DNA from: Stegostoma tigrinum
Taxonomy: Eukaryota
DNA: 64,000 bases
Direction of reading: 5' to 3'
Assembly (NCBI RefSeq): GCF_030684315.1
Contig: NC_081366.1
Span: 36,370,078-36,434,077, forward strand
Part shown: piece after piece, positions 505 through 54,170 of the stretch
How positions within the stretch are numbered: the first letter of the stretch is position 1
How the letters are laid out: each line of letters opens with the position of its first letter
The notes under the pieces: generated by a model
Database searches by the model: none
What the model was told of the DNA's origin: nothing
Seen by the model: only the letters and a program-made list of their open reading frames with translations
Translations under genes and position numbers: made by a program

Positions 505-610
505 GTTCTGAAGGAGGGTCACTGGTCCTGAAACGCTAACTTTGCTTTCCCTCCACAGATATTGCTAAACTGGCTGAGTGCTTCCAGAAATTTCTGGTTT
601 TGTTTTCAAT
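505..610 (+). mobile_element. Short Penelope-like 3' tail (family C) with degenerate hammerhead motif
   Basis: gttCTGAAGGagggtcactggtcctGAAAcgcTAac, followed by a tail (ctccacagatattgct...tccagaaatttctg) shared with copies at 29920-30060 and 43130-43325. Confidence 0.6.
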
Positions 611-2049
611 TTCTAACGCCCACAATTTGTGTACGCGTTTTACTGTTCTTCCTGCCAAGAAGGCCGACAATCTCATTTCTAACGTTATACCCCATCCATC
701 AAAAATTCACTACTCCCTTCAAACTTCACATATCCTTTTGCAGACTTGAGCATCCTAACAAACTGGTTTCCTATTTATATTTTTACACAAGAATTTTGGC
801 TCAATCCAATCCACCACTTCAAGCCATTAACAGATCACTAATAGTTAAGGTCCCACTGATTTTCACTGGTTACAGTTTGCTGATCTGAAAATAACCCAAA
901 TTGCTTCCCGCTTCATTAAGTATTGAGCATACTCGAGCATTTTAATGCAAAAACTGCTCTTGATGTAGTGTCAGTGTCAGACTGCCATTCACAGTTCCAC
1001 TAGAAGCAGGGAGCAGCAGTCGAGAGGCATCCATGTCAATATTTAACTGCTGTCACCATATATTGATGTTTTATTTGTTATAGCAACCAGTTGCAATATT
1101 TTGGAAAAAAGTTATTTAAAACTGTTAAATGTAACCTTCTTACAAGTGACTGGGAGAATGTTGGTGAGGGAGGTGGAAGGAGGAGGAAAGAAGGGTAAAT
1201 TTTGCATAACAGATTTAGATTAGTAGCAAAGAAGGGCAGTTAGAAAGCTCGACTAGCGCATAAAACATCCGCACGGACCAGTTGGGCTGAATAACTGGTT
1301 TGCGTAACTATCGCCGATGTAATCTTTTGGTCTGTAAAAAGGGTGATCTAAATCCGTACAAAACTAATACAACCTCAGCACAGCAGAATTGGAATCGGAA
1401 GTAATCGTTATTAAACGATATTTAAGTCAATATACAGAGGAGATAAATATTTCCAAAATCAGACTCAATCCGCTTGTGGAAAGGTATTTCGAATCAGTTA
1501 TCGCGATTCCTTCTGATTAATGATATATACAAAAAAGTTACGCATTCTCTTCAAATCAAACTAGGCAGAGGGCGATTTATTAGGTATAGTGAAATACAAC
1601 GCGTCTCTTTCAGCGAACTGAGAAACTTAACACGCCAAAGTCCGGGCCAAGTGCCTGTAGCAAATTAAAGTAGAAATTTCCCTTTAAAAAATTAGGATCA
1701 GAATTTCAACTTTCATCCTTGGCAAGCTTGGCGTTTAAGTAATTTCACCAACAGCTTTGTGGCTTTCTGGAATGATCTACGAAATCCCGTTCCAAAAAAA
1801 AACATGCGTCAGGACGTTGACAAAAAGGGAAACCCGGTCCTACAACAACAGCACAATCTCTCCAGAGTATACCAGGAGCGAACAAGCCTGGTAAACAAAA
1901 AAATATGCCTGCCCATACATGCTGTGTCAGCGTTTGTCGAACGACTACATCAAGGTCCCTTTTTTTCGGTTAAAAAGTATTCTTAATTCGTTTCCTCCAG
2001 GTACGAACTACTAGTAAATAAAGGTAGTTGCTCTTAGTATTAAAAAAAC

Positions 2050-2700
2050 TGCGTTTAAAACCACGTCGTATAGGAACGCGGCGGGACTTGTACAACATAT
2101 TAAATTACTAATGGGGGAAGTAACGTTGTTATAAATTGGAAATCATAAACTGGCGCCCAAATCTAACAGCAACAACTATATTCAACAGTAACCTCCCCTC
2201 CTACTGTAACTGGCAGTCACTGCAGCGCATGCGCCGCTGTTGGCCCCTACAAACGGGCGCATACTCAGTGCAGTCCGGTGGCTGGGACTCAATTTGGCGG
2301 CTGCACGAACAAGTCCCGACACAGGCCGATCCCACACTTACCTGTCCGGGCCCAAACAACCGAGCTCGGTACAGACCAATCCGGAGTCGATTATTTTCTG
2401 CCGTCACGTCGGAAAACACCGCCTCAACCCGCTTCAAAACACCAGCTACAGTCTCGTGAATTCTCTCGTTCTCTTTTCTCTTCTTCTTTCGACTTTTTTT
2501 CCGCCCCCCCGATATATTTTCTTCGCTAATGCTCAGGCTTCTGCGTCACCAACCGAAACCGCTACCGGAAGGCGCGTCAGTAGACTGAAGTGACCAGCCA
2601 TTGGCTGGCAGGCTGTGCGATTACGTCATTGACAAACTAGCAGCTGCTGTCAGACAGGGCGTTGCCATGGAGCTTGGTTGGGAGTGGTAGTAAGTCAAAT
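2050..2700. promoter_or_regulatory. CpG-rich housekeeping-type promoter
   Basis: Local CpG enrichment against a CpG-poor background. Perfect NRF1 palindrome GCGCATGCGC at 2225-2234, ETS motif CCGGAAG near 2565, CRE-like TTACGTCA at 2621-2628, and RFX X-box-like GTTGCCATGG at 2661-2670. Confidence 0.75.
2342..2570 (-). other. Probable non-coding first exon of an unidentified - strand gene running off the left edge
   Basis: Consensus 5' splice donor CAG|GTAAGT on the - strand (plus-strand acttac|ctg, 2336-2344) inside the CpG island. The start position is approximate. Confidence 0.6.
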
Positions 2701-3065
2701 GATGTAGCAAGAAAAACATTTTTTAAACAAATAAAGCGCATTTAAGTATTTAAAATTACTGCATTTTCCATAAAATCAGGAGAGTTATGATGCAGCAGAT
2801 TAGAAATGAACATGCCGTTTGTACGTCTTCATTTTTACAAGGATATTAATACTGTAGGTGATTTAATGATTTATTAATTAATATGATTGAGTGTAGTAAT
2901 AAATGCTGCAAAGTAGACGCTAATGCTGCATACAAAATTGGCCCAGTAATGCCAGTGGTGGAATCTCTAACATGGCAATATTGCAGTCAAAGCTCCCCCT
3001 GTAATAGCTATGCAATGGGAACAGTCTCAAAAATGCTCCAAAACACATCAAGGCATTAAGTTTTA

Positions 3066-4020
3066 GGTTTCCAAACGACACCTCTGCCATCAGCAATCCA
3101 ACCCTACCACTGAAAACATTTTTCCCTCCCCACCCTTGTCTGCCTTCTGGAGGGACCACTCTCTCCGTGACTCCCTTGTCTGCTCCACACTCGCCTCCAA
3201 CCCTACCACACCAGGCACTTTCCCCTGCAACCGCAGCAATGGCAATACCTGCCCCCTACTTCCTCCCTCACCCCCATCCTAGGCACCAAGAAGACTTTCC
3301 ACATCAAGCAGATGTTCATCTGCCAATGTGGTATACTGCATCTGTTGTGGCCTCCTCTACGTTGGGGAAACCAAGCGGAGGCTTGGGAACCGCTTTGCAG
3401 AACACCTCTGCTCGGTTCGCAAAAACAACTGCACCTCCCAGTCGCAAACCAATTCAACTCCCCCTCCCATTCCTTAGACGACAAGTCCATCCTGGGCCTG
3501 CTGCAGTGCCCCCATGATGCCACCCGAAGGTTGCAGGAACAGCAGTTCATATTCTGCTTGGGAACCTTGCAGCCCAATGGTATCAATGTGGATTTCACAA
3601 GCTTCAAAATCTCCCCTCCCCCACTGCATCCCAAAACCAACTGTAGCTTGTCCCCGCCTCCCTAACCCATTCCTCCTCTCACCTATCCCCTCCTCCCACC
3701 TCAAGCCACACCCCCATTTCCTTCCTACTAACCTCATCCCGCCCCCTTGACCTGTCTGTCCTCCCTGGACTGACCTATCCCCTCCCTACCTCCCCACCTA
3801 CACTCACATATGCTGTCTCCATCCCTGCCTCTTTAACTTGTCTGTCTCCTCCCCAGCTACTCTATCCACCTTCGATCCACCTCCCCCTCTCTCCCTATTT
3901 ATTTCAGAACCCTCTCCCCCTCCCCCTTTTCTGATGAAGGGTCTAGAGCCAAAACATCAGCTTTTGTGCTTTTAAGATGCTGCTTGGCCTGCTGTGTTCA
4001 TCCAGCTCTGCACTTTGTTA
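3066..4020 (+). mobile_element. Penelope-like element (Neptune-type, family A), 5'-truncated: GIY-YIG remnant plus 3' tail
   Basis: Frameshifted match to the GIY-YIG ORF at 23655-24137 (…CLGTLQPNGINVDF). C-rich tail; hammerhead CTGATGA at 3931 with GAAA mutated. Flanks tcaaggcattaagt (3048-3061) and tcaagcaattaagt (4021-4034) look like a TSD. Confidence 0.85.
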
Positions 4021-5259
4021 TCAAGCAATTAAGTGTTTTACCCAAATGGCAACACTTTATTGTGAGGCTGTAAAAACAATGGGCTATTTGACAGAAGTGA
4101 CGTGTTCTCTTTTTGATTTGGAATGACAGTACAGTTCATGTACAAGAGTGCAAGAAACCTGGTCAACATAAACTCGCTAATTGCACCAACATCACTACCT
4201 GGCTAAGTTCAGGAAGGACCAAAAGTCTTGTAATATGTTCACATGTTTCAGCACTTAGCGACTTCATATACTCACTTCTTTGATTATCTGTGTTCATATT
4301 GAAGGTGGGTCCTTGATTAGTTGTTGGATGGTGGAAGATCCTGAACCATTTTTACAGCAGTTTTTGGCAATTGCAGTTTTCCAATGTCTTTCCACTTTCA
4401 GGTACAGATTGAGGGCCACTGCCAGAATGAGAATACAACCCATGCATTTGGCACTAATGTGCACCACATGCTAGCCATGTAACCAACTGAACTAGCAACC
4501 TCAATTGCACTGACTCACTGAACTATCAGTGTAAGAACCTCCATGCTTGATAATCAGATAGATCACGGAATCTATGATCAGGAAAAAGATCATAGAAGGA
4601 CTTGCTTTCACAGAAATCAAATATCTGTGTTAATAGGAAGGTAGAACACTAACAATGATTTTTAAACTTGACAAATTGCAAAATAGTGGGTGTAAATGTT
4701 TAGTTAAGATTGAAGAATCAATGCTGAGGGATCTCCTCTATGCTGGAAATCTGTCTATGATCCTCAATAGTTCTCTGTAAAGGGAAGCTGCCGCTGACTA
4801 ATGGAAAGGAGGTCAAAGCCAATGGAATGACTGAAGACCAATCTTAGGAGGTGGTGTGATACAGTCAGATAAGGAAATTTAATTTTCGCTACCTTGGGAA
4901 AAGAAATCAAATGAAGGAAAATACCAGAAAACTGCATTAAACTGCATATGATGAACCTACAACTACTAATGCTATGTATATTATACAACAACTACCTCAA
5001 CTTGATTACTAAGTACGGATCATTTGGGGTTGAAATAGGCATAAAGTTGCCCCGAGAAACTTTCTCATTCTGTCATCATGTTGTTACTGGGAGCTCCTTG
5101 TCATGACTGACCATTTATGGAGCATATTCTTCCCTTTTGTTTTCTCCCCTTAACCCTTACTTTTATCGCTCATTCTATATTTTTGAAACAGAACAGGCCA
5201 TATTGGACTTAGTATTGTATAATGTTCCACAATTAATTAATCACCTCAGAGTAAAGGCA

Positions 5260-9735: not shown

Positions 9736-9745
9736 GTTACTCTTG

Positions 9746-10338
9746 AAGTTGTTGACTTACTGACCGAACTGGCTGGTTATAGTTCAGACATGTTGTTACC
9801 ATGCTAGGTAATGTCATCAGTGCAGCCTCCAAAGAAACAATGTTGTTCTACTGCACTTGGTATTTACATGATCTGGTCTGTTGAGGTGTTTTGAGCCATT
9901 TTGGGTTTTTTTTTGCAAGGGTTTGTATATGGAGTCTAATTCCACATATTTATTGATTGCATTTACGGGTGGAGAACCAGGCCTCTAGGATTTCCCGTGC
10001 ATTTCTATGGTTGGCTTCCATCTTAGTTCAAGCCAACTATAGATATGCACAGGAATTCCTAGAGGCCTGGTTCTCCACCCATAATACAATCAATAAAATT
10101 GTGGAATTAGACGCCATATACAAACCCTTGCAAAAAAAGAACTGGAAATGACACCAAATACTTCAACAGACCGGATCATGTAAATACTTAGTGGAGTAGA
10201 ACAATTTAGCTTCATCGGAGGCTGCACTGATGATGTTACCTAGCATGGTGATGAAACATCTGAACTATAACCAGGAGCTCAGCGAGCAAGTCAACAATCT
10301 AACCCACAACCCAAGCTACAAATCCTTGCAAGAACCTT
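9746..10338. mobile_element. Fold-back (inverted) Penelope-like element, family B (Poseidon/Penelope-type)
   Basis: About 270-bp arms in inverted orientation around about 10025. The right arm encodes the endonuclease C-terminus (QEFLEAWFSTHNTINK) and a hammerhead core at 10227-10260. Confidence 0.8.
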
Positions 10339-10989
10339 ATGGTCCACTTCGTTATGGTCATAAAGTGAGGCTACAAACAGCAAGCGATGAGGGTAAGTGA
10401 GTTCATTTATAGTTTAGAATGCCTTGGCTGTCTAACCATGGTTCTGGAGAGACAACTATCCAACCACCAACTACCCCTTCCCATACCTGCTTCTCCCCAA
10501 CTCTCCTTCACCTCCACCCTACCTCTGTGGTCAAAAAAACGCAACAATCCTTGGTAATGAAACAGTTATTTTTCATCGCAGTCCACAATTAAAAATACAG
10601 AAAAATAAAAAAATGCTGTCTTTACTGCAGGAATATTGCCTTAATGAGACTCTTAATTAAGTGTAAGAACTCTACACCGGCTATCTGCCACTTGCCAGGT
10701 GGCAGCCTTTCTGACTTCAGGCTGGCCTCTAAAAGTTTGGAGTAGAAATCCTAGTTGTGAGTTTGGCGCTGAGGCCAGTAAAACCAAATTACGGCTAACC
10801 CCCTCCAATCTAGGCCCTGGCTTACTTTAAAAATAAACTCCATGAGTCCCACATCCCTTGCCACTTCAACTCTGCATCACATTTGTGATCTGTTTTTATT
10901 TTGCCTGTTTTGCTCCTGACACTGGTTCAATAAAGCAAGTAGCACTGTTTATTTCACTTGGGCTCTCTGGCCTTAGTAGTTATTTTAAT

Positions 10990-11839
10990 GCTGTGGTTGG
11001 TTGGCTTGCCAAGCTGGTTTGTTAGTTTGCAGAAGTTTCATTACCCTGCTGGGTAACATAATCAGTGCAGCTTCCAATGAAGCGCTGTTGTGCTTTCCCC
11101 CCGGTATTTAAACTCTGGGATCCGTTGGATTTGATTACCTAATTTCCGGTTTTTCCTTTGCAGTGTACGTATATCGGGTCTAGTTCTATGTGTTTGTTGA
11201 TGGCTTTCTTGGTGGAGAACCAGGCCTCTAGTAATTCCCGTGCTTGTCTCTATTTGGACTGTCCTAGGATCCTGGTGTTGTCCCAATCGAACTGGTGGCT
11301 CTCCATATCCGTGTGAATGGAAATGAGTGAGAATTGATTGTGCCTTTTTGTTGCTAGTTGGTGTTCACGTACTCTTGTGGCCAGTTTTCTTCCTTCTGTA
11401 TAGATCTATACAGACAGGAAGAAAACTGGCCACAAGAGTACGTGAACACCAACTAGCAACAAAAAGGCACAATCAATTCTCACTCATTTCCATTCACACA
11501 GATCGACTGGGGCAACACCAGAAACACCAGAATCCTAGGACAGGCCAGTCAGAGACAAGCATGGGAATTATGAGAGGCCTGTTTTTCCACCAAGAAGGCC
11601 ATCAACAAACACATTTAACTCGACCTTATAGATACACCACTGCAAAGGAAAACCGGAAATTAGGTAATCAAATCCAATGGACCCCAGAGTTTAAATACCA
11701 GGAAAGCAAACACAACAGTGCTTCATTGGAGGCTGCACTGATTATGTTATCCAGCAGGGAAATGAAACTTCTGCCAACTAACAAAGCAACTTGGCGAACG
11801 AACCATCCACAGCCCGAGCTACAAATCTATCAAGAACCT
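10990..11839. mobile_element. Fold-back Penelope-like element, family B; spacer-less palindrome
   Basis: Arms meet at ctgtataga|tctatacag (11404/11405). The right arm encodes a GIY-YIG remnant (IQTGRKLATRVREHQLA). TSD-like flanks tagttattttaat (10977-10989) and tagttactttaat (11840-11852). Confidence 0.85.
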
Positions 11840-13885: not shown

Positions 13886-15060
13886 GAATTAAACTGGTTG
13901 CACTTACATTTCTGACCTACTTCCTATCCCCCTGTCCCCACGACATCTGCCCTTCCAACCCTCATCCTTCCGTAATGGGTTGCATGCTGATATCCAGATT
14001 CTTCTGGAAATTTTGTCAATCTGATTTGCAGCAATATTGCACTTTTTGAAAATGTTACATCTAATGACTTTTGGGTCAAGATAGCTTCCATGCTATGTAG
14101 ATTTGCGATAGGGTTGCTGATTGTGCAAGCAGTGGTATAAAATCAATATAAAACCAAAGTAAACAGCTTAATGAGCAGGAAACTTCTATAAAATCTTCTG
14201 GATGCACTGATCAGTCTGTGTTAACATGATACTGCAGTCAAGAAGATAGGCATCAATGTTAATGTCTGTCAATTACTTTGTTAAGATTTGTTAATCTCTT
14301 TAAGGTTAAGAGAAATAGATAATGAATCTTAGTTGTATTTGACCACAAATAAATGAGGAGCAGTTGTGACACTAGGTACAGCATGAGAGAGTACCCCTGA
14401 CCAAGTCAATAAACTCTGTCCACAAAGGAAAGATATGTATCTTAGTTTCTATCTCATCAATGTATTAACAAGAATAACTTTGGTTCTTACGTCTTCCTCA
14501 GATTACTTCATTATATGTCTTAGAAATAATTAAATTATATTTTGACAGAACTATGAAATATTAATTACTATCTACTCCCAGAGGTCAGCAGCATGCAGCA
14601 CATGTACAATGTCAACAAATTAAACCTCTGAAACCATTTTGTGAGGCACTTCTGAAAGGTCAAAAATATTTCTACCTGTTGGTCCCACCAGACTTAAAGT
14701 GCACAATTTCAAACTTTGAAGATGATGCAAAAATGAAGTATTATGAACTGTTAAGAGGATGATAACAGAATTCAAAAGGATATAGGGTGGTGAAATGGGT
14801 GGAAATGGCAGGTGAAATTTAATGCAGGGATGTGGTCCATTCTTATCGGAGGAGCATGAAGAAGGAATCGCAAATGAAGGCGCAACCTCAAAGGGGCAAC
14901 AGTAATCGAGTTCTGGGGTTACAAGTGCCTAAATCACAAATGTGACAAAGAGTTCCAGACAGAGATAATGGGAACTGCAGATGCTGGAGATTCCAAGATA
15001 ATAAAATGTGAGGCTGGATGAACACAGCAGGCCAAGCAGCATCTCAGGAGCACAAAAGCT

Positions 15061-15088
15061 GACGTTTCGGGCCTAGATCCTTCATCAG
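15061..15088 (-). ncRNA. Minimal type I hammerhead ribozyme motif (Penelope-associated)
   Basis: Reverse complement CTGATGA-a-ggatctaggccc-GAAA-cg-TC. Confidence 0.7.
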
Positions 15089-15239
15089 AGAGGGGGATGG
15101 GGGGAGGGAACTGGAATAAATAGGGAGAGAGGGGGAGGCGGACCGAAGATGGAGAGTAAAGATCTTCTTTACTCTCCATCTTTGGTCCGCCTCCCCCTCT
15201 CTCCCTATTTATTCCAGTTCCCTCCCCCCATCCCCCTCT

Positions 15240-15267
15240 CTGATGAAGGGTCTAGGCCCGAAACGTC
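15240..15267 (+). ncRNA. Minimal type I hammerhead ribozyme motif (Penelope-associated)
   Basis: CTGATGA-a-gggt ctag gccc-GAAA-cg-TC: intact core, stem II, palindromic ACGT stem III, ct/ag stem I. Confidence 0.75.
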
Positions 15268-15869
15268 AGCTTTTGTGCTCCTGAGATGCTGCTTGGCCTG
15301 CTGTGTTCATCCAGCCTCACATTTTATTATCAAAAAGTTCCAGACAGCCTGGTTAAAAAAGTACACAGAATCATGAACTTCATAAGTAGAAGCATACGGT
15401 TGGATTTTTTTCATCCCAGTTGGTGGGGAAAGGGAACAAACCCATGGTTGGTGGGACAAAAAGATATGAAGAGCCATAATTCTGAAATTTCCACCTGATT
15501 TCATCTTCCACCCTACATGATTTTGAAATGAAGCAGGTCATTGCCCACTGTTTTCAAAAGCAGAACTTCCATATTGCCGCTACCTCAATTTTTTATATCC
15601 TGTAGTTTAAAATGTGCATTTAGGTAGATAGGCTTCTGAAGTCTGTGAACCATGGCAGATCAGAGGGTTCACGATCCCACTGTTCTACAGTCTTTCACAG
15701 CTCTGGACATCGCATATCATTGATAGATAGTGAGATAATTCCAGGACATTATTAATGTAAAAATTGTTGATTGGACATCATTCTTAAAAAGTAAGTACCA
15801 TTAAAATAACGAGCATTTTGAAGGTATAAGCCAATACACTTGGGAAATGCTAACAAGGCAAAGGGTTCC

Positions 15870-20970: not shown

Positions 20971-21422
20971 CTCCCCTTCCCCCACTGCATCCCAAAACCA
21001 GCCCAGTTCGTCCCCTCCCCCCACTGTACCACACAACCAGCCCAGCTCTTCCCCTCCACCCACTGCATCCCAAAACCAGTCCAACCTGTCTCTGCCTCCC
21101 TAACCTGTTCTTCCTCTCACCCATCCCTTCCTCCCACCCCAAGCCGCACCTCCATCTCCTACCTACTAACCTCATCCCACCTCCTTGACCTGTCCATCTT
21201 CCCTGGACTGACCTATCCCCTCCCTACCTCCCCACCTATACTCTCCTCTCCACCTATCTTCTTTTCTCTCCATCTTCGGTCCGCCTCCCCCTCTCTCCCT
21301 ATTTATTCCAGAGCCCTCACCCTATGCCCCTCTCTGATGAAGGGTCTAGGCCCGAAACGTCAGCTTTTGTGCTCCTGAGATGCTGCTTGGCCTGCTGTGT
21401 TCATCCAGCCTCACATTTTATT
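20971..21422 (+). mobile_element. Penelope-like 3' tail (family A) with intact hammerhead
   Basis: Near-identical to the tails at 3600-4020 and 23327-23760. Three copies of a ~39-bp internal unit. Hammerhead at 21334-21361. Flanks acaataaaat (20961-20970 and 21423-21432). Confidence 0.9.
21334..21361 (+). ncRNA. Minimal hammerhead ribozyme motif
   Basis: CTGATGAagggtctaggcccGAAAcgTC. Confidence 0.75.
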
Positions 21423-23326
21423 ACAATAAAATGTGGTTTTGGTTTTAACAGCTCAGAAACAAAAATAATTCGTGAGTTTTACGTTTTGACAAAACGAAAG
21501 CATAAATTGTTCAGGAGCTTTAACTGCTGAGATGGCCCATCTGCTATTCCCAACACACTCTGCACATGAAACAGCAGCATCTAACTGATTGTCATGCATA
21601 AGGATGGCAACTCAGAGCACTAATAAATTTTTGTGTTCCTGTCCACAGCATCCACAGTTCTTCACCAAAAGCTGAACATTGATGTGTGGCAATATTTATG
21701 CTTGTAGTTACAATATTTTCTTGGGTTTTATGAAATTCTATTGTGAATGCAGCAAATTTGTAGAAAATCATCTATGGCAATACTTACTGCACAGAAAGAG
21801 GTAATTTGACCAGCCGCGTCTGTGCTGGCTGTCTGAAGGGACAATTCACCTAATGCCACTTGCCTGCCATTTCCTCACAGTCCTACACATTCTTCCCTTT
21901 CAGATAATAACCCAATTCCCTCTTGATGCCTCGACTGAACCAGCCTCCACCATTTTGTCAGTCATCATGGTTACGGATCCTAACTATTTGCTTTGTGAAA
22001 ACCTTTTTACTCACATTACCTCACTAACACCTTCACATCCTTCCTAAAGTATGGTACTCAGAATGGATGAAATACTCCAGTTGAGGTCAGACTCATGATT
22101 TATACATTTAACGTAACTTTATTGGTTTTGCATCTATTCATGAAACAGAGAATGTTGCATGCTATAATAACGATACTCTCGACCTGCCACCTTTAATGAT
22201 TTATGTGCAGATACGCTCAAGTCCCTTTTCTCATGTATTCCCATTAGAAATGTAAGCTATATTTTATAATGCCTCCCTAAGTTCATTCTATTGTAGTCAC
22301 TGCATTTATTTTTATTTGTACACGGAATGTAGATGTTATTTGCCAGGCCAGCATTTATTGCCCAGAGCTCAGGTCGGAGTCCATCACATTGTTGTGTTTC
22401 TAGATTCAGACAAGACCATGTAAGGTTTGAATATTTGTTTAGCAGGTAAGGACATTAATGAATCAAATTATTTTTTTAAGACAATCGACAGTGGTTACAT
22501 GGTCACCATTAGGCTGGGTTTTTTAAGTCCAGATTTTTTTAATTGAATTTAAAAATCTGCCATGGTAGGATTCAAACTCATGTTCCAGAACAATAGCCTG
22601 GAGCTCTAGGTTATGAAATTAATAACAGTGGGATCCAGAATTAATACAAGAAAGTAAGTCAAACAAGCTGTGAAAAATGGAATCAAAATGAATGAGAAAG
22701 AAACAGTCCAGTTGCTTTCAAATCATCAGGCAGCCTTCCCACCACTTTTCTGCATTTCTGGTGAATGTTGAGAGCATAGCACCCATTGTCCAAAACTCTC
22801 ATTCTGATCACAAGCACAATCCCAAAAAGGGGAACAATTAGGAGTAGAAAAGTTTTTTCTTGAAAATCTGCCTCACACTCCACGGAAACAGGGGCAATGA
22901 TAAACCTTCTGCTGCTGTAGAGATAGGCTATTTCAGCATAGAAAGGAACTGAATTTGGGACTCACCTTTACAAAATGGTTCACTTTACTCCACACAGTAT
23001 ACTTAGCAAAGCAAAAGCAAAATATTGCATAGGTTGAAAACTTGAAACTAAGAGGGAAAATGCTGAGAATATTCAGCTGATTAGGCAACATTTGCAAAGA
23101 AAAAAGTGTTCACATTTAGGTCAATAACCTTTAATCAGAACTCAAAAAGTTTCGAGACTTAACTGGTTTAAAGCAGGTCCAGGAACAGAGAAGAGGATAG
23201 GAGAGGAAACAATGGAAGAGAAGCTCTGGTGGTTGAGTGGCAGGCAACAAAGACAAAGTACAAAAGAAACAATGAGGGTAGACAAAGAGAAGTACAAGGA
23301 AAGAAACAAAAAGGAAGGTTCAGAGG

Positions 23327-25059
23327 ATCCAAGATAATAAAGTGTGAAGCTGGATGAACACAGCAGGCCAAGCAGCATCTCAGGAGCACAAAAGCTGACG
23401 TTTCGGGCCTAGACCCTTCATCAGAGAGGGGGATGGAGTGAGGGTTCTGGAATAAATAGGGAGAGAGGGGGAGGCGGACCAAAGATGGAGAGAAAAGAAG
23501 ATACGTGGAGAGGAGAGTATAGTTGGAGAGGTAGGGAGGGGATAGGTCAGTCCAGGGAAGACGGACAGGTCAAGGAGGTGGGATGAGGTTAGTAGGTACG
23601 AGATGGAGGTGCGGCTTGAGGTGGGAGGGAGGGATGGGTGAGAGGAAGAACAGGTTAGGGAGGCAGAGACAGGCTGGGCTGCTTTTGGGATGCAGTGGGG
23701 GGAGGGGATGAGCCTGGGCTGGTTTTGGGATGCGGTGGGGGAAGGGGAGATTTTGAAGCTGGTGAAGTCCACATTGATACCATTGGGCTGCAGGGTTCCC
23801 AAGCGGAACATGAGTTCTGTTCCTGCAACCTTCGGGTGGCATCATTGTGGCACTGCAGGAGGCCCATGATGGACATGTCGTCTAAAGAATGGGAGGGGGA
23901 GTGGAAATGGTTCACAACTGGGAGGTGCAGTTGTATTTTGTGAACTGAGCGGAGGTGTTCTGCAAAGCGGTCCCCAAGCCTCCGCTCGGTTTCCCCAATG
24001 TAGAGGAAGCCACACCGGGTACAGTGGATACAGTATACCACATTGGCAGATGCGCAGGTGAACCTGTGCTTAATATGGAAAGTCATCTTGGGGCCTGGGA
24101 TGGGGTGAGGGGGGAGGTGTGGGGGCAAGTGTAGCATTTCCTGCGGTTGCAGGGGAAGGTGCCGGGTGTTGTGGGGTTGGAGGGGAGTGTGGAGCGAACA
24201 AGGGAGTCACGGAGAGAGTGGTATCTCCGGAAGGCAGACAAGGGTGGGGATGGAAAAATGTCTTGGGTGGTGGGGTCGGATTGTAGATGGCGGAAGTGTC
24301 AGAGGATGACGCATTGTATCCGGTGTGTGAGAATGAGGGGGATCCTCTTGAGGCGGTTGTGGCGGGGGGGGGGTGGTGTGGGGGATGTGTTGCGGGAGAT
24401 GCGGTCAAGGGCGTTCTCGACCACTGCGGGGGGAAAGTTGCGGTCCTTGAAGAACTTGGACATTTGGGATGTGCGGAAGTGGAATGCCTCATCCTGGGAG
24501 CAGATGCGGTGGAGGCGGAGGAATTGGGAATAGGGGATGGAATTTTTGCAGGAGGGTGGGTGGGAGGATGTGTATTATAGGCAGCTGTGGGAGTTGGTAG
24601 GCTTGAAATTGACATCAGTTTCTAGTTGGTTACCTGAGATGGAGACTGAGAGGTCCAGGAAGGTGAGGGATGTGTTGGAGATGGCCCAAGTGAACTTGAG
24701 GTTGGGGTGGAAGGTGTTGGTGAAGTGGACGAACTGTTCGAGCTCCTCTGGGGAGCAAGAGGCGGCGCCGATACAGTCATCAATGTAACGGAGGAAGAGG
24801 TGGGGTTTCGAGCCTGTGTAGGTGCGGAAGAGGGACTGTTCCATGTAACATACAAAGAGGCAGGCATAGCTTGGGCCCATGCAGATACCCATGGCCACCC
24901 GCTTTGTCTGTAGGAAGTGGGAGGGATCGAAAGAGAAGTTGTTGGGGGTGAGGACGAGTTCGGCTAGGTGGATGAGGCTGTCGGTGGAGGGGTCTGGTCG
25001 GGCCTGCAGGACAGAAAGAAGCAGAGGGCCTTGAGGCCATCTACATGAGGAATGCAGGT
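23327..25059 (-). mobile_element. Penelope-like element (Neptune-type, family A): RT, GIY-YIG and tail, frameshifted
   Basis: RT motifs AMGICMGPSYA…FLRYIDD (ORF 24575-24898). GIY-YIG FTCASANVVYCIHCTRCGFLYIGET…RFAEH (ORF 23655-24137). Hammerhead at 23397-23424. Confidence 0.95.
23397..23424 (-). ncRNA. Minimal hammerhead ribozyme motif
   Basis: Reverse complement CTGATGAagggtctaggcccGAAAcgTC. Confidence 0.75.
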
Positions 25060-25359
25060 CCTGGAAGTAGGATTAGAGGAAACTATAACAGCTGTTGGCT
25101 GGAAATCTGAAATTGATTATTATGATCTGCAATTTTTGAGCTGAATGTTGAGTTGGGAAAAATTACTCATCAAAACATGAGAGCTCATAGTCAAATAATT
25201 GCTGTATCTGTAAAACTTCCATGTGGTATGCTGTCATGTTCAGATACCGATTGTTGAACCTACCTTGAGCTTTTATTGAGTTTTATTAGATAAGTGAAGG
25301 ACACCAAGAATAGAGTGGGGTGGAGAATTTAAATGAGAGGTGAACTGAAACTGAAGTTT

Positions 25360-29919: not shown

Positions 29920-30060
29920 GGAAAAAAGCCGAAATAACTGCGGATTATGTAAATCAGGAACAAAAACAGAAGTTGCTGGAAAAACTCAGCAGGTCTGTCA
30001 GCATCTGTGAAGAAGAAGTCAGAGTTAATGTTTTGCGTCCGACGACCCTTCTTCAGAACT
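29920..30060 (-). mobile_element. Penelope-like family C tail inserted in Gypsy pol
   Basis: Reverse complement gttCTGAAGAagggtcgtcggacgc-aaaa-cattaac (decayed hammerhead). Flanks catcatctaa and cgttgtctaa could both derive from cgtcgtctaa by CpG decay. Confidence 0.7.
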
Positions 30061-31623: not shown

Positions 31624-34600
31624 ATAACAGACCACAAACCCCTGTTAGGGCTACTCGAAGTGGACAAGGCCATACCACGCACAGCTTCAGGTCGAATTCA
31701 GTGGTGGGGTCTAAGTGCATACAATTACAAGTGGGAGGTCAAGTAACAAATGCAGATGCCTTGAGTCACCTCCTGCCGGCAAATACACCACTCGTGATGC
31801 TGCCACTGGAAGGGTCCTTTTTGGTTTTAAAATTTCTGGGTACACTTCTGGTCACCGCTGACAATATCAGACTGTAGATGCAAGAAGCTCTTGTCCTGAC
31901 AAAACTAAAACAGCTGATAGGGCCATCATAACCAGAATTGAAACCAAAGAGGACAGCACTTCGTTATGGGGAGCAAGAGTGATTGTCTAGAGCAAAGGTC
32001 ACCACCAGATACTGGCTGTACTCCACAGGGTCATCTGGGATGTCCAAAATGAAGTGTTGGTGAGACATTATGTCTGGTGGCCAGGATTGGATGCAGACCT
32101 AGACGCATTGGTGAGGCAATGCCCAGAGTGCCAACAAGGACAAAAATTACCTCCAGCAGCTCCCCCCACATTGGTGGGAATGGACAATTAAACCTGGAAG
32201 TGGTTACACATTGACCATGTGGTTCTGCCATGGGCTGAATGTTCTTAGTCATTGTGGACACTCAGTCAAAGTGGTTGGATACGCATATATTTCGATACAA
32301 TATCCATTCGATAAATATGGAATGACAATAGAAAGGTTGTGATCAATTTTTGCAACTCACAGGCTCCCGAAGTGTTGGTCACTGACAAAGGACCGTTATT
32401 TACCAGCAGGTAATTTGACTCTTTCCTAATGTTGAATGGCATTTGGCATAAAGGGACAGATCCATACCATCCATTGTTCAATGGTCTGGCTGAAAGAGAA
32501 GCTCAAACTTTGAGGGCAGACTTTAAGAAACAGCCTACAGCTTCACCACATACCAAACTCCAAACTGTCCTGGTGCCTATTTGATATCAGACCATCCCTC
32601 ATGCAACTACAGGGATAGCTGTAGCAAAGTTACTAATGGGAAGAAGAGACCACACCAGGTTGAATCTGATCTTCCCAAACCTGGGGAGGAGGATGAAATG
32701 GCATAAGGACTGCCAATGCTGGATGCAAAACTCCTCTAAGTGAGAGAGACAGTTTATGTAATCGGACAATGTTTCGTGCTGAAAACACAGCAACGGCCAT
32801 GCATGCGTAAAAGGCATGGTCGAAGCGAGGGCAAGTGTCATGACATACAAATGTCAGATAGATCAAGTGGCCCTGAACAAGCACGTGGACCATATAAAAG
32901 CTGCAAATCTGTAAACAGGGCAGGAGCAAAACGTGCACAGTCAAAGGTTCTCACCAAGATTTGTAGCTCAGGTTGTGGATGAGGTTGCTGGCTTGCTCAC
33001 CAAGCTGGCCGTACAATAACCAGCCAGCTCAGCAAGCAAACCAACAACCACACACCCAGTCCCTCAGAACAGCCAGAAATCATCATGGAATCCCTAGTGT
33101 CCAATAAAAACCTTAAAATCTGAGATAGGCACAGTGGATATTGCAGCCTTGATGCCTTTACCTCTTGAAGAAGAGGGTGAATTTCTTACGAGGTGCTCCG
33201 GGTGCAAGAGGCAGGCTACTGTCTGGTACATGCCATCCGTATCTGAGGCTGAGTCAGAGGAACTGGACCCAGTGCAACAATGCAGTAGGAGAGTCTACAT
33301 GAAAAGCAACAGGTCTGCATCACCAGACCTAGAGGGGGAGGGATGAAGTGATTGTAATGAGGTCAAATACTATGCACTTGTAAATAAAGGGTGACTCAGT
33401 CTCTGTGGAGTTATTTCACAGTCTATTGTGTCTGTGCTAACCTATCTACATGAATCCCACTAGCCAGCACTTAGCCCAAGCATTAAAACATTTTAACGTC
33501 AATTGCTCATCTATGTATTCTCTAAACATTTTCAGGTTTCCCACCTCTGCTAGATCATCTTGGCCTGCTGTGTTCACACAGCCCCACACTTTGTTATCTT
33601 GGATTCTCCAGCATCTGCAGTTCCCATTATCTCTGCTAGACCATGCATCCAGATTCTTCACACTTCAGGTGAAAAGATTTTTCTTCAAATGCCCTCTAAA
33701 CCTCCTGCCCTTCATCTTAAGTCCTAATTTTAAGCATAATTTTAAGTGTTCTTGGTGAGTGCTAACTGAAAAATGTGGAAGCTATACAAGTAGCCCTGCT
33801 TAATAAAGAATCTTTATGATTAGGAATTACATACTAAGGTCTTACTCAAATTTTTGTACCTCTCAAGCACCAAAGGTTAACAGAACACAGTCTCAGGATT
33901 TCTGGTCTCCACCATGACAGCCTGCAAAAGGATCATAATGCCTGCTTCTGTTTCCAATTTCAAACTAGTTTATTTTGCCATTCACTTGAATCTCTGCATA
34001 CCAAAATTAATCTTGCAGGACTATCACTTTACCCAAGAGGAGCACATTTTGTTCATTTAGTTCATTTGGGACATCTGTTTCCTGAATTGCTGCAGACTGA
34101 AAAGGTCTGACATGTAACTTTCAAAATGTAGGCTGTGAACTCCTGTTGCTGCTTTAGCAAACCACCTGAAAATGGCCTGACCTACGCCATACATGTCACT
34201 CAGCATATATGATGGTACAGTTCTGTCACTGATGTGGACTTTTCCTGCCATATAGTAGACAGGAAGCAATGACAGAACTAGTGCTATACCCCCATTGTGG
34301 TTCTTGTCTTGCTGGTGTGTTAGGAGCTTTCTGATTGATAAACCAGACTGAGTTGAGGTCAACAGTCTGACTCCAAAAATATTCTCTGGCTACCCAGATA
34401 AAAATAACCTTTTTTTGTGAAGTTCAGTCTGCCTGACATACTGCAGTAATTTTTGTAATGTAAAATCTTCTTTAAAAACTCTGACAGGTCTTCATCCTGT
34501 GCCTCCATCACAGTGTTTCCTTGTTTGCAATCGTACGTGAGGTGGTATAATCATTCATGATGGAATCAGTGTTTTTGCGTAACCCTTGTTATATCAACTA

Positions 34601-38684: not shown

Positions 38685-38690
38685 AATAAA
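38685..38690 (+). terminator. Polyadenylation signal of beta-thymosin
   Basis: AATAAA about 300 nt after the stop, followed by GT/T-rich sequence and preceded by an AU-rich element near 38620-38638. Confidence 0.65.
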
Positions 38691-39769: not shown

Positions 39770-40757
39770 CCAGACCATCAATGACCTCATCCATTCGGAT
39801 TTCCCGTCCACAGTCTCCAACCTGATGGTTCCTCAACACCTTACCACCATTTTTTTTCTCTCACCTTCTGTCATTTTCACCACCTGTAATCAGACACCAT
39901 CACCAGAAAGATATTTTCTTCCCCCACCCCTATCTGCTTTCCATAGGGACTGCTCACTCTGAAACACCGTCGTCACCTACACAGTCCCCACCAATCTTTC
40001 CACCACACCTGGCATCTTTCTCTGCAACCACAGAAAGTGCTGCACCTGCCCCTATTCCTCCTCCCTCACCTCTGTCGAAGGCTCCAAACAATCATTCCAA
40101 ACACAACAGAGATTCACCTATACATCTTCCAACCTGGTCTATTGCATCCATTGCTCCGGATGTGCTCTCTCCTTTGTGGGAGAGACCAAGCGCAGACTCG
40201 GTGGTTGATTCATGGAGCATCTGCACTCTGTACGCTCCAATCAACACCACCTTCTGGTTGCCATCCCTTCAACTCCCCCTCCCACTCGCTTGGTGACATG
40301 TCGATCCTGGGCCTCCTCCACTGTCAAAATGAAGCCACACTTAAACTGGAGAAACAACTTATATTCCATGTCGGGAGCTTACAGCCCAATGTTCATCAGC
40401 TTCAAAATCTCCCCATCCCAGTCTCATCCTACGTCCAGGCCTGTCTCTAATCACCGCCTTGTTGACCTGACACAACCTGTCTATCTGCCCTCTCACCTAT
40501 CCGCCCCACCCTTGCCACTGACCAATCTCCACAATCCCGTACCTGATTCCACCTGTCAACATCCCACCGACCTTTTCCCCAGCCCCACCGTCGTTCCGTT
40601 ATTTATTTGACTCCCCTTCTCCCTCCCCAGTCCTGTAAAGGGTCCAGACCCAAAACGTCGATTTTCTTGCTGCTCCGATGCTGTCTGACGTGCTGTGTTT
40701 CACCAGGGTCACATTTTATCGACTCTGACTTCCGGCATCTGCAGCCCTTACTATCTG
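39770..40757 (+). mobile_element. Older Neptune-type Penelope-like element, decayed
   Basis: Colinear similarity to 3066-4020 (CNHRKC, LVYCIHCSGC GIY-YIG remnant). Decayed hammerhead near 40633-40660. Confidence 0.85.
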
Positions 40758-43129
40758 CACGTATGCAGTATTGTCTGGCTTAGCTCTAGAAATACCACAA
40801 ATAACCTAAAATCCCCAAATTAGGGGTGAATTGCGAATGTCCTGCTCGTGTATATATATATATATGGACGTCAGAAAGAAGTAAATTGGTCTTAGGTGGA
40901 TGACCCTCCTGCCTCCTCACAGTTAAATGCCGAGGCTAATACATAAAAATGAGTTAGAAGATGTTTTCTGCAACAACCTGTGGAAGTTATGCTGACCTAC
41001 ATGATAATTTTCAGGAGAAAGGAATTACGACAATTTGAGGGACAATGAGCAAGCTCAATAACAATTCAAGTACATAATACCTTTGCAGATTGCGTGATTT
41101 AATTTTTATTACATTTACACAAGAATGTAAGACTTGTTCCATTAAATTATTTTGTTAATTTTCATTATATCTTTCAAATACGTGACATGCCTCCCCCTTC
41201 TATTTATAAGGCGGCAATAGTTATGTTCTAATAAAACAGACTCTGAGCAGTGTTTTATATCGGGTGAAATTGTGTTGTATGATGTCTTCTTCAAAGCTGG
41301 ACTTTCAGAATGCCTTATTTCTGATGACGTATATAAATTTCATGGGAACCGGGAGAGACTCTCTAGATACAATAGCCCTCTGAATTGTGGCGTGGTTGGC
41401 GGAGGTTTTCTTTTTACGTTCATGTTTTCTGTTCATTTTTGAAAACTGCTAGCGCACAATTAGTTCTAGGCCAACAGATTCTTTACACACTCAAGGATAA
41501 TCACATCTTTCCGTATTCATGCATTAAAAAAAAAACAAAAGACAGGTCTTTCCAGTTTCTAGAATTGAAATATTGAAGGGTTTTAATTGCACAACTTAGA
41601 ATATATAAAATCCAAATGAGGATCACATCTTTGCCCAACAAAAAAAACTACTTGATTTTCAGATGTGTGCGTAAACAGCAGCAATGTCCGTTGTAGAAAA
41701 AAATGTTTTCAATGTATGAAACACTTCCAAAATACAATGCATGGTTTTCCTGCCATAAAAATATCGAGGTGCGGAGCGTTCAAGATTTCCTTAGGGAACA
41801 ATAGTATCTCAATGACAAAAACATGGGCTGGGACACTTGGAGGGTCTGGAAACAGATCCGGTATCTTCCATATCGAGTATCACATTTATTATGTATATAG
41901 AAAGGGTCCCGATTAGACAATGACAGTCAGCTAACAGATGGGCAATTGATTTTGGAACACTCTGAGCTTGGAACAGCTGGCACCACCGTGGAACAGAGGA
42001 GAGAATTCTTAAGTCTTTGTTGAAGGAGATACACATTTGTGAAGAAATCAGTCTGACATAATGCCAATAATGCTAATAACCACTCTGTTGCTGGACATTA
42101 TTTAATAAATTACTGATAGCTTTCTTCATCGATTTATATATGAGGTAAACCCCCTTTTTAAAAAAAGAAATGCAATTGAGTGTCTGTGCAATTTTAGGTG
42201 AACAATTTGGTTATATCCAGAGTCCACTTGGATGATATACATGTTGGTCTGTTTCCGTGCTGTGCACTGTGCTGGCCGTCACATTGTGTCTGGAAAAACA
42301 GTCAGCTGATTCCATCGATGTCTGCACCACACCGACAGCATTTTTAGTTGGTCCCAGCGAAATCAGATTGTTGAATTAGTTTCGAGGTGGAAGAGAAGCA
42401 ACAACTCAAGGTGTCACTTAGAATCCGGAAAATGGTTATTTTCAGGAATTTCTCACCATGGTATTTTTGTTTATTAGTATCTACAGTTCTTTGATGAATT
42501 AAGTTCTTAATCGTATTGTAATTCTATCATTTTCAGTATCGTGATCTCATTAACTATATCTCTGCTTGACAACTGTTACAATGTGTAATTTACTTTTTTT
42601 AGGGATTTGTGTTGTTTCTGTATTATCTGACAGCAAAAGATGGAATACAGCTCCCAACAGTTCTTTCATAATTTGAGATTTTTCTCCTTGAATCCAAAGG
42701 GCACAAACTTGAATAAAACTCAGTGTCCAATTTTTTTTAGACATTCGTCACCAATTTTGCTCGGTGCACATTAAGCATGATTGAGCACTGTTATCATCTG
42801 TCATAACTGACGATTAGTCCAACGTTATCCTGAATTGCAAAGTAACTCAGTGCTTATTTTCCTTATTACCAGAGGTCTCCTTAAATCTCTCTGCTTCACC
42901 ACTACACCCTCATCTTAAACAAAGTACTCAATACATTTTTTGATAAAGAATAACTTTCCATGCTTAAGGACATATTCGTTGTTGCATTGTTGTATTTTAC
43001 TAGCTGGCTTTGACAATGTGAACTCCATGAATTCCTGTGCTAGAATTCACTGCCAAAAGGATACAGATAAGGAATCCATTGTCATCTTCCAAAGGGATGG
43101 ATAGGTGCCAAGATTTTAATACATCTTCA

Positions 43130-43325
43130 AAAACAGAAATTGCTGGAAAGGTTCAGCAGGTCTAGCAGCATCTGTGGAAAGAAATCAGAGGTAACATTTT
43201 TGGTTGAGTGATCCTCAGAACGTTAACTTAGATTTCTTTCCACAGATGCTGCTAGACCTGCTGAACCTTTCCAGCAATGTCTTTTTTTTTTATTTCTGAT
43301 TTATAGCATCTGTAGTTCTTAGGTT
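43130..43325. mobile_element. Short fold-back Penelope-like tail (family C)
   Basis: About 48-bp inverted arms 43139-43187 and 43231-43278 with a decayed hammerhead remnant in the spacer. Confidence 0.7.
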
Positions 43326-44156
43326 TTTTTAAACACATCCTTGCAACTTAGTATTGTTCAACACACCCTGTCCCAATATAATATTGTCTGGAAATACTCC
43401 ATTGCCAAATGAGCCAGGCCTGTGAAAACTCTGATATGTAACCGCAATCCTTGACTCTAAGCTCTTAGTGACACTTGTCTCAAAATGTCAGTAATTCCCA
43501 GGGATGGTAGAAGCCAAGGGCAGAAATGTTTTATTTAAAAAGTGAGGTGGGGGTGGGGTGAGGGGACAGGGTTTTAAGTTCTGCTAAATTAAGAGCTAAA
43601 GATAACAAAAAAACCTTTTTTTATTGGACTAACAGCCTCTAATAATTTGACTATGACACTCAACTTGATATTTCGCTTTACTGTATTTTGATATTACCAA
43701 CCACTTCAATCATCACCAAGTGGAACCCATGGAGGACAAGTTCAAGCAGCAGAATCCAGAGCATCCCACTTATCCACCTCATCAAACCTGTGGCAGAGAC
43801 TGTGGCTCTAGGACTGAATGATTCAGCCACAGCAGGACCCACCCACCCTCACCCCCTTGCCCAGAGTGGAAGTAAGTCATCCTTGACTTTAAGGGACTGC
43901 CAGAGAAGAAAGAGTTTTCATATTATGGTGACAGTGTGGTGTGGTGTAAATCAAAGGTGAGCACCTTTTAATTCACATAATGGGGATCCTTTTATCAGAT
44001 ATATATTCCTTTATACAGAATAGCATAAATGACTTTGTATACAAAATGATAGCACATTTCACGTTGGATCATCTTAACTTGAAGGAAAGGATACATAAAC
44101 TATTGGCATCAAGCTCAACACAATGTCATTTTCAAAGTTAGTGAAGGGCTTTAGTT

Positions 44157-51230: not shown

Positions 51231-51779
51231 CTTGAAATTCACCTATTTGTGACTCACAATGCTAGTGCCAGGCTTTTTCAAAGTGTTTTGCAGGTCTGAC
51301 ATTTTCCTTAATTATTCTTTCTTGATTCCCTCACATTGCCAAATTAGTTTAACTTGGAAATGAGGTGAATCAAATGGTTCAAGTGTCAGTGAGACAACAT
51401 TCAGCCCTCCCAATGACACAAGCTGAATGCCCCACATCATACCCTGTTGCTCAGGGGCATTTTGCTTGCATGTTACCCTGTTGGTATGATGTGGCATTTG
51501 AAAATACACTCACTGATCTTACGACTCATACAAAATCATTGACTTTTTTATGGCCCTACCTCCTGGTCTTTTAGGTCTTAATTACTGGCATTGACTGCCA
51601 TAGCTACCTGCTTCCATAATCTTTTGTGGCAGATGATTTCTTGGTTTCCTCCAGGTACAGATCATGTTTCTTACTGTTTACCTCATTCACTAAGGCCTCC
51701 AGAGCATCAGCTAAAACCTTGGAGGCCCATTTCTTGTATGTTGCGCCATTCTTCAGTTATTATATTCACTTAGTGTCAT

Positions 51780-54170
51780 AGAGTTAAACAGACGGAAACA
51801 GACCCTTCAGTCCAACTTCTCTGCTCTCACTAGATATTCTAAACTGATTTGATCCCATTATATAGGTATTTGGCCTATATCCCTCTAAATGCTTCCATTT
51901 CATGCAGCCATCCAGATTCATTTTAACTGTTGTAATTGTATCTGCCTCCACCACTTCCACTGGCAGGTTGTTCCATAAGTGCACTAACCTCTGCACGAAA
52001 GAAATTGCACCTCAGATCCCTTTTAAATCTTGCCCCCCTCACCTTGAATCCATGCCCTCTAGTTATGAACTCTACTACCCTAGCAAAAAGACCTTGGCTA
52101 TTCACCCCATCCGTGCCCCTCATGATTTTATAAACCTCAATAAGGTCACCCCTGCCTCTGATGCTCCAGCCTCACTCTATAACTCAAACATTCCAATCTT
52201 GGCAACATTCTCATAAATCTGTTCTGAAACTTTTCAAGTTTAAGATAACGAGGTGTAGAGCTGGATGAACACAGTAGGCCAGGCAGCATCAGAGGAGTGG
52301 GAAAGCTGATGTTTCGGGTCTGGACCTTTCTTCGGGGAAGGGGGCTCTGAAATAAATAGAGAGACGGGGAGGCAATGATAGAAGGTGGATAGAGGAGCAG
52401 ATAGGTGGAGAGAAAACAGACAGGTCAAGGAGGCAGGGATGAAGCCAGTAAAGGTGAGTGTAGGTAGGGAGTTGGGATGGGGGTTAGTCGGTGGGGGTGG
52501 GTGATAGGGAAGATGGACAGGTCAAGGAGGCGGGGATGAGGCTAGTAGGTAGGAAGTGGGGGTGGGGGTTGGTCAGTGAGATGAGAGGAGTGGATAGGTG
52601 GAAGAAAAGATGGAGAGGTCAAGGAGGCGGGGATGAGATGGGCTAGTCTTGGGATGAGGTCGGGGCGGGGCAGTTTTGAAGCTTGTAAAGTCCACATTGA
52701 GGCCATTGGGCTGCAGGGTTCCCAAGCACAATATGAGGTGCTGTTCCTCCAGCCTTCGGGTGGCATTGTTGTGGCACTGGAGAAGACCCAGGATGGACAT
52801 GTCATCCAAGGAGTGGGACGGGGAGTTGAAGTGGTTCACGACTGGGGTGTTGTCGCTTATCATGAACTGAGTGTAGGTGCTCCACAAAGCGGTCTCCAAA
52901 CCTCCGCTTGGTTTCCCCGATGTGGAGGAGGCCAGATCGGGAACAGTGGATATAGTATACGACATTAGTGAATGTACAGGTGAGCATCTGTTTAATGTGG
53001 AAGGTTTTCTTGCGGCCTGGGATGGAGGTGAGGGGGGAGATATAGCACTTCCTGCGGTTGCAGGGAAAAGTGCCAGGGGTGTTGGGGTGAGTGGGGAGTG
53101 TGGAGGGGATGAGGGAGTCGTGGAGACAGCGGTTCCTCTGGAAGGCAGATAAGGGTGAGGAGGGAAATATGTCCTTGGTAGTGGGGTCAGATTGCAGGTG
53201 GCGGAAGTGGTAGAGAATGAAGTGTTGAATCCAGAGGTTGATGGGGTGATATGTGGGGACAAGGAGATTTCTGTCTTTGTTGTTATTGCGGGGAAGGGGT
53301 GTGAGGGCTGAGGTGCGGGAAACGTGAGAGATGTGGTCAAGGGCGTTCTTGACCACTGTGGAGGGGACATTGCACCTATAGCCTCACCCCACCATCTTAA
53401 CCTGTCCATCTTCCCTCCCACGTACTCGTCCCTCCCTCCTCACTGACCAACCCCCATCCCAAATCCCCACCTACACCCACCTTTACTGGCCTAATCCCCA
53501 TCTCCTTGACCTGTCCGTCTTCTCTCTACCTATCTGCTCCTCTGTCAAACTTCTATCATCGCATCCCCCTCTATTTTTTTCAGAGCCCCCTTCCCCTCCC
53601 CCATTCCTGAAGAAGGTTCCTGACCCAAAACGTCAGCTTTCCTGCTCCTCTGATGCTGTCTGGCCTGCTGTGTTCATCCAGCTCTACACCTTGTCATCTC
53701 AGACTCCAGCATCAGCAATTCCTACTATCTCTTTTCAAGTTTAATATCTTTCCTACAGGAGGGAGGCCACAACTGAACACAGTATTCTAAAAGTAGCCTC
53801 ACTTTATATGACTTTATATGCAATATGATGTCCCAACTTCTATACTCGATGCATTGACCAATGGAGGCAAGCTTGCCAAATACCTTCTTCACCATCCTGT
53901 CTACCTGTGACTCCACTTCCAAAAGGATGCGCCTGCACCCTTAGTTCTCTTTGTTCGGCGCACTCACCACTGTTCGGCCATCAGCTGTAGAAGTCTTGGC
54001 CTGGTTTGCCTTAGCAAGATGCAAAACCTAAAACATATCCAAATTAAACCTCATCAGCCATTTCTTGGCCCATGTGATCAAGGCCTTCTTGTCCTTTGAG
54101 ATAACCTTCTTCACTGTCCACTACACCACCCATTTTGGTGTCATCTGTAAACATACTAACATAATTGCCA
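51780..54170 (-). mobile_element. CR1 LINE 3' part, split by a Penelope insertion
   Basis: ITRGHGFKVRGARFKRDLR (51923-52123) and IEYRSWD…LLEYCVQLW (53725-53922) on either side of the insert. Confidence 0.85.
52244..53730 (-). mobile_element. Neptune-type Penelope-like element with inverted 3'-tail copy (53371-53730, +)
   Basis: ORF 52802-53356 CNRRKC…TCTFTNVVYYIHCSRSGLLHIGETKRRFGDRFVEH (GIY-YIG). Perfect 14-bp TSD cttttcaagtttaa (52230-52243 and 53731-53744). Confidence 0.92.

Follow-up and report, generated by a model that had tools for sequence, protein, structure and literature searches.

Minimal hammerhead motifs at the 3' ends of truncated Penelope-like elements in a 64-kb stretch of the Stegostoma tigrinum genome

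Minimal hammerhead ribozymes are known from the pseudo-long terminal repeats (pseudo-LTRs) of metazoan Penelope-like elements (PLEs), with about 4,000 motifs reported for coelacanth and 9,000 for Xenopus, including isolated motifs left by truncated PLEs and pairs on opposite strands separated by 100-700 bp (PMC4209133). Inverted ends, one-sided tails, target-site duplications (TSDs) and palindromic junctions have also been described for PLEs (PMC3846280, PMC8557442). Biochemical work on a PLE of the green anole, Poseidon PAc, indicates that both DNA strands are nicked and extended, that two start sites of reverse transcription bound the tail, and that insertion in vitro can proceed without ribozyme cleavage (Frangieh et al. 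2024, PMC11167929). Here we analyse hammerhead motifs in a 64,000-nucleotide stretch of the shark Stegostoma tigrinum (assembly GCF_030684315.1, contig NC_081366.1, positions 36,370,078 to 36,434,077, forward strand), hereafter the window, and compare them with these systems. The literature search returned no shark-specific account beyond one chondrichthyan in a recent preprint (bioRxiv 10.64898/2026.07.22.740005); the supplements of PMC4209133 and of the preprint may list sharks.

Based on motif searches, folding, protein comparisons and the anatomy of the insertions, we propose that copies from two PLE lineages, mutated and truncated at the 5' side, carry these minimal type I hammerheads at their 3' ends. 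Such copies are likely dead on arrival and likely do no meaningful cutting of host RNA. To this reading we assign a probability of roughly 0.82. All motifs sit at the 3' pseudo-LTR ends of 5'-truncated PLEs, and the arrangement is that of published PLE anatomy. The copies fall into families A, B and C, which a first-pass annotation of this DNA had taken to be three unrelated families; B is indeed unrelated, whereas C is homologous to A, their profiles cross-matching at E ~1e-8 to 1e-10.

The minimal hammerhead motifs in the window are real. All six copies initially claimed as core-intact (10227, 15061-15088, 15240, 21334, 23397-23424 and 25889-25922) carry CUGAnGA-N-stem II-GAAA, although at 15061-15088 a G>A change has cut stem II to 2 bp, and this copy keeps its boxes but fails the structural descriptor. 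In its strict form, with stems I and II required, the descriptor finds five matches in the window, compared to a mean of 0.065 and a maximum of 1 in 200 block-wise dinucleotide shuffles of the window. The palindromic ACGU of stem III is present in four of the five, a combination seen in none of the 200 shuffles, and the extra base between CUGAnGA and stem II in all five. The first-pass annotation had ascribed both features to every copy; the extra base holds for the intact ones, whereas ACGU is replaced by ACAU at 10227 and by ACUU, together with a CUGAUUA box, at 11065 and 11738. Its ten decayed copies are all homologous remnants, and it had missed one further decayed family C copy at 23028-23143 on the minus strand. 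Boxes, the extra base between 9 and 10.1 and the palindromic 15.2-16.2 without loop III are shared with published minimal hammerheads (Cervera & De la Pena 2014, PMC4209133), as are the presence of several families in one genome, the prevalence of single dispersed motifs and the opposite-strand pairs. The family A stems (I 2 bp, II 4 bp) fall short of the 4-5 and 7-8 bp given for the schistosome consensus in the same paper. Among the 69 Rfam matches of the window at E<=5 there is no hammerhead; the microRNA-like matches are the fold-back inserts, all below gathering score.

Only 15240, 21334 and 23424 are fully canonical, combining the core, G10.1-C11.1 and ACGU (positions are numbered as in the cited papers). 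G10.1-C11.1 is found in four young family A copies, and a G-U pair in four of five family B copies, among them 25922 (G10.1-U11.1). Since arms 9820 and 10227, which belong to a single insertion, each display one of the two complementary products to which a CG at 11.1/12 decays, U11.1 in family B probably arose by CpG decay after insertion. Stem I is paired through differing sequences between the families (CU/AG, AGUC/GAUU, GAGUU/AACUC and UCA/UGA), read by hand like all stem-pair counts, as MAFFT misaligned family B against A; this would support selection on the fold in the presumed active parents. Chance matches to a short motif have a virtually nil probability as an explanation: loose CUGAnGA...GAAA matches are indeed frequent, 17 in the window with 11 outside PLE inserts, but the structured descriptor far exceeds its shuffled expectation, the varying stem I pairs remain paired, and the motif occupies the same place in two unrelated PLE lineages.

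The attribution to PLEs, likewise made by the first-pass annotation, is borne out by links to open reading frames (ORFs) for families A and B. Family A ends are continuous with reverse transcriptase (RT), CX4CxxC linker and GIY-YIG DNA in four inserts, and a tblastn search with PLE-like proteins matched four inserts of family A but none of B or C. The copy at 23.3-25.1 kb gives RVT_1 and GIY-YIG matches, both below the Pfam cut-off. Its RT fragment at 24.6-25.1 kb has its closest named relatives among whale shark, zebra shark, bamboo shark and ray proteins, with 82% to a whale shark protein. The CX2-5CxxC linker between RT and endonuclease (EN) is present in family A near 24150 and in protein P0075, which places family A with Neptune or Nematis by the linker criterion (PMC8557442), on which the placement of both A and B is based. 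Family B arms carry the C-terminus of an endonuclease, as detected by 81 phmmer matches, while a word-based protein search with the same fragment returned no match. RVT_1 and/or GIY-YIG is carried by five of the seven family B relatives scanned; the endonuclease part is seen in the window and the RT in relatives. The longest of these five, P0159, is without the CX2-5CxxC linker, as in Penelope/Poseidon; by this criterion family B is Poseidon-type, and the presence of the linker in A and its absence in B relatives mirror the split between EN+ PLE clades (PMC8557442).

The frame through the 25922 hammerhead matches the first 19 residues of P0159 (10/19 identical), which argues that the family B hammerhead overlaps the start of the PLE ORF, as in anole PAc (PMC11167929). 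A further shared feature is a pair of 3' end points that match two RT start sites. Family A differs from PAc in belonging to another clade. We note that the distant Poseidon-type proteins P0125, P0147 and P0159 keep a 'VTKRL' stretch at the ORF start, and that the corresponding frame spans the GAAACGUC half of the hammerhead, where coding and ribozyme constraints overlap.

The following insertions were delineated in the window, with position 1 as its first letter.

503..642, plus strand: family C short insert with decayed hammerhead (core 508) and tail, starting at about the core; possible 7-bp duplication by eye, weak.
3065..4022, plus strand: family A 5'-truncated PLE with broken GIY-YIG region, 3' untranslated region (UTR) and decayed hammerhead (3931), tailless; TSD score 10.5.
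9745..10339: family B head-to-head insertion, arms 83% alike; arm 9820 (minus) decayed and tailless, arm 10227 (plus) with ACAU and tail; TSD weak (6.5).
10993..11839: family B head-to-head insertion with endonuclease C-terminus; both arms with CUGAUUA and ACUU, tail on the plus arm; 16-bp TSD (score 11).
14963..15330: family A fold-back, arms 98% alike; 15061-15088 (minus) with stem II mismatch and tail, 15240-15267 (plus) canonical and tailless; 17-bp TSD (score 14.5).
20971..21422, plus strand: family A 3' UTR insert with canonical hammerhead 21334-21361; 10-bp TSD.
23028..23143, minus strand: decayed family C copy, overlooked by the first-pass annotation.
23328..25068, minus strand: longest family A copy, with C-terminal half of RT, CX4CxxC linker, GIY-YIG (frame broken), 3' UTR and canonical hammerhead 23397-23424; TSD weak (7).
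25810..26003, minus strand: family B solo insert with tail, hammerhead 25889-25922 overlapping the PLE ORF start; perfect 14-bp TSD.
29922..30060, minus strand: family C insert with decayed core 30056 and tail, beginning 4-5 nt before the core, within a Gypsy-type RT-RNase H remnant.
32956..33051: family B inverted insert, neither arm with a hammerhead; one tail.
33559..33630, plus strand: family A insert of 72 bp that begins downstream of the hammerhead, with tail; 14-bp TSD (score 11.5).
39860..40756, plus strand: old family A copy with endonuclease region and tail; hammerhead (40633) decayed, its stem I compensated.
43126..43327: inverted family C insert whose minus arm holds a decayed core; its plus arm begins inside the GAAACGUU half and carries the tail; TSD weak (7).
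52247..53730: inverted family A insertion, arms unequal, 52247-53373 (minus) with endonuclease region and tailless, 53374-53730 (plus) tailed; both cores decayed; TSD score 14.5.

These 15 inserts cover ~13% of the window; 13 hold 17 core remnants and two hold none. The 16 copies listed by the first-pass annotation collapse to 12 insertions, as 9820/10227, 11065/11738, 15088/15240 and 52335/53607 are arm pairs of single inverted insertions. With the additional copy included, insertions occur once per 4.9 kb, against its estimate of about one copy per 4 kb, and its 'dense array' was dropped for independent insertions of mixed age and strand. The inserts share their 3' ends, with or without a tail of ~35-45 nt, and differ in their 5' ends, which in families A and B range from below the core to ~1.6 kb above it. 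Of the 14 inserts tested, seven reach a TSD score of at least 10 (null P 0.009 per pair). Six inserts are inverted head-to-head, all six with a tail on one arm only; in five the arms start at nearly the same place, as judged by eye, and in 52247-53730 they are unequal. Taken together, 5' truncation, an inverted truncated copy, a one-sided 30-40-bp tail, TSDs and palindromic junctions are as described for EN+ PLEs of the Neptune/Nematis and Penelope/Poseidon types (PMC8557442, PMC3846280), unlike which the shark inserts are mostly very short, many consisting of the two ends only.

At the junctions, the arms of two fold-back inserts of unrelated families meet at the palindrome AGATCT (15159-15164 and 11403-11408), and those of a third insert are joined through AACGTT of the hammerhead itself (43219-43224). 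The family A 3' UTR opens with 2.9 repeats of a 39-bp unit (20972-21083), and sequencing-contig joints near 23663-23714 show variation in the number of units.

We propose the following mechanism, modelled on the anole biochemistry. The PLE protein would nick both strands and prime reverse transcription at either of two positions beyond the hammerhead; copying would start ~65-110 nt past the cut site. Because it starts there, nearly any product longer than ~100 nt would carry the motif. Early stops would yield solo ends, and either fold-back of the cDNA or a second cDNA would yield mirror inserts. The two motif-less inserts and the dead core common to both arms of 11065/11738 fit an insertion process that does not need the ribozyme, with arm-to-arm conversion as an alternative for the core shared at 11.0-11.8 kb. 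The motif is likely to work only in the tandem parent transcript, presumably as a protein-assisted double hammerhead, whereas the dispersed copies would decay neutrally, the ribozyme being a passenger of dead-on-arrival insertion products.

The first-pass annotation had suggested that dispersed copies could cut host read-through or intronic RNA, which our data do not sustain. In family A, stem I has 2 bp and stem III consists only of ACGU, hence a partner is required, and the mirror arms, being on opposite strands, cannot serve as partners. The cores of fold-back inserts, including the hairpin that holds 15240, are predicted to pair with the opposite arm (P 0.90-1.0 in 4/4 folds), and 21334 and 23424, mutually inverted and 2 kb apart, are predicted to form a long duplex of -244 kcal/mol. 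Enforcing a double hammerhead costs 21-38 kcal/mol relative to the best predicted fold in all eight copies, in a model that ignores tertiary contacts, Mg2+ and proteins and in which true minimal hammerheads would score poorly too. The nearest same-strand canonical pair is 6.1 kb apart, no intact copy lies within the host genes detected in the window, where a Pfam scan covered 300 of the 325 unmasked frames of at least 55 aa (those up to 59.5 kb; shorter exons would escape), and only the decayed 508 copy falls in a putative intron, in antisense. With 90 bp around 23424 as query, 64,599 contigs of sequencing run X10 and 63,772 of run X11 were recruited, figures that refer to copies at least 80% alike among the contigs listed and in which depth is not a copy number. 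The number of copies in the shark appears to be much higher than in the genomes of PMC4209133. Changes of at least 4% within the motif are confined in these runs to the two CpGs (four bases at 12-17%, G12 at 13%), position 7 (8-9%) and loop II (4-5%). That G12 changes at the rate of neighbouring CpGs fits neutral decay of dispersed copies, and signs of a domesticated host hammerhead were not seen, with no sense copy in a detected host transcript. The first-pass annotation had named a lack of stem II covariation across genomic copies as one half of its refuting condition; for family A this half applies, as no compensatory stem II change was found at >=4% of contig depth in four runs. Furthermore, no 5' ends pile up at the cut site among the loose ends listed for X10 and X11.

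Host-RNA cutting by dispersed copies thus appears unlikely from folding and sequence, and the version in which intact copies act through long-distance or trans pairing we regard as very improbable. In its favour, three copies are canonical, the family is highly abundant, about half of the copies should keep both CpGs intact by a rough estimate that multiplies the CpG rates, and the anole motif cleaves with its protein (PMC11167929). However, besides the short stem I, the hairpin, the mutual inversion and the spacing described above, the published assays used here report no cleavage of a schistosome monomer (PMC4209133), no RNA reads ending at the anole cut site (PMC11167929) and failure of 8/9 Xenopus dimers to cleave (bioRxiv 10.64898/2026.07.22.740005). 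Hardly tenable is the view that the motifs represent non-LTR retrozymes, i.e. tandem hammerhead repeats that release circular RNAs. Such units resemble the shark inserts in being short, ORF-less and related to PLE pseudo-LTRs (PMC7229834; bioRxiv 10.64898/2026.07.22.740005), they have been found in the one chondrichthyan sampled in the preprint, and rare contig joints from other parts of the genome show the core duplicated in tandem over 35-50 nt (depth 26-1900 vs ~3e7). In contrast to head-to-tail retrozyme arrays, the shark units are solo or head-to-head, with variable 5' ends; none of four tandem arrays in the window holds a hammerhead, the motifs are minimal rather than of the canonical type (PMC7229834), and inserts are continuous with ORF DNA. 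Retrozyme-like units were accordingly rejected as a description, given the lack of a tandem hammerhead array in the window, the variable 5' ends of A and B, and the two inserts without a hammerhead. The joints, observed in contigs of X10 and X11 over 23378-23428, are whole-core direct duplications at a few loci and natural double-hammerhead candidates in their own right.

Several observations weigh against our reading, in addition to the stated limits of the folding model and of the contig recruitment. Seven of the 14 inserts tested are without a significant TSD, no full-length parent element was seen, and no ORF DNA lies beside the four family C copies in the window, family C being placed by its likeness to A only. 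Moreover, insert 30060 begins 4-5 nt before the core, as do the minus arm at 43225 and probably 503, and long, low-agreement loose contig ends pile up at 23425 in 4/4 runs (918, 898, 37 and 40 contigs). The family C copies and this pile-up point to a preferred 5' start that random truncation does not explain, and which could reflect run-off at the parent's transcription start, a family akin to short interspersed elements (SINEs), or clipping at a variable tract. Of the 'retrozyme-like non-autonomous units' initially suggested, the reduced form of a short class starting just before the core therefore stands, while the retrozyme part does not.

It is possible, though unlikely, that the family C type and short A copies constitute a separate non-autonomous, SINE-like unit of ~100-140 nt, running from the 5' edge of the hammerhead and copied in trans by PLE protein. 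The shared start of 30060, which lies inside the Gypsy remnant, of the 43225 minus arm and probably of 503 would agree with such a unit, as would the lack of shared upstream sequence among the three family C copies tested and the pile-up in all four runs. Nevertheless, the same pattern would be expected from RT run-off on a parent RNA that begins at this point, and an internal promoter is known from Drosophila Penelope (PMC2377424); none of the 13 family A and B arms with a core starts there, and the pile-up may in part represent clipping at a variable pyrimidine tract. A bolder version, equally doubtful, is that sharks harbour self-standing mini-retroelements of 100-140 nt, trans-copied by Penelope proteins, and that among tens of thousands of intact motifs palindromic halves would pair between transcripts and cut host RNAs with the help of PLE protein. 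A milder version is likelier, namely that transcription of the parent begins at the fixed start, so that the inserts would map both ends of PLE reverse transcription genome-wide.

Under our preferred reading of dead-on-arrival PLE copies, the window is a dense though otherwise ordinary record of Penelope activity that extends the known minimal hammerheads to a shark. It provides material for asking how mirror ends and one-sided tails arise in PLEs and whether the ribozyme cuts in vivo; its importance would be much greater if dispersed copies did cleave host RNA or formed a mobile family of their own.

Beyond the PLE inserts, a compact thymosin-beta gene lies at 37050-38830 on the plus strand, with coding exons at ~37964-38061 and 38347-38384, a probable 5' exon ending at 37152, and no hammerhead insert inside. 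A WD40 gene, which we take to be RACK1, starts at 55.4 kb on the plus strand (55400-59000+), in a region without detected hammerhead remnants from 53.8 kb to the window end. Other vertebrates carry C/D snoRNAs in RACK1 introns; the Rfam search found none in the introns of this gene. A possible non-coding first exon at ~2342-2560 (minus), with a GC-rich promoter and a GTAAGT donor, was read by eye, and a protein atlas search with the 2204-2545 frame gave no match. The Gypsy-type retrotransposon that hosts one family C insert is broken, spans ~28.9-32.6 kb (28940-32600, plus) with RT, RNase H and integrase pieces, and is interrupted by that insert and by another repeat. Finally, a SINE-sized dispersed repeat of 200-300 bp is present in six copies, at 26646-26831, 27827-28103, 30351-30655, 49049-49256, 60266-60523 and 63569-63841.

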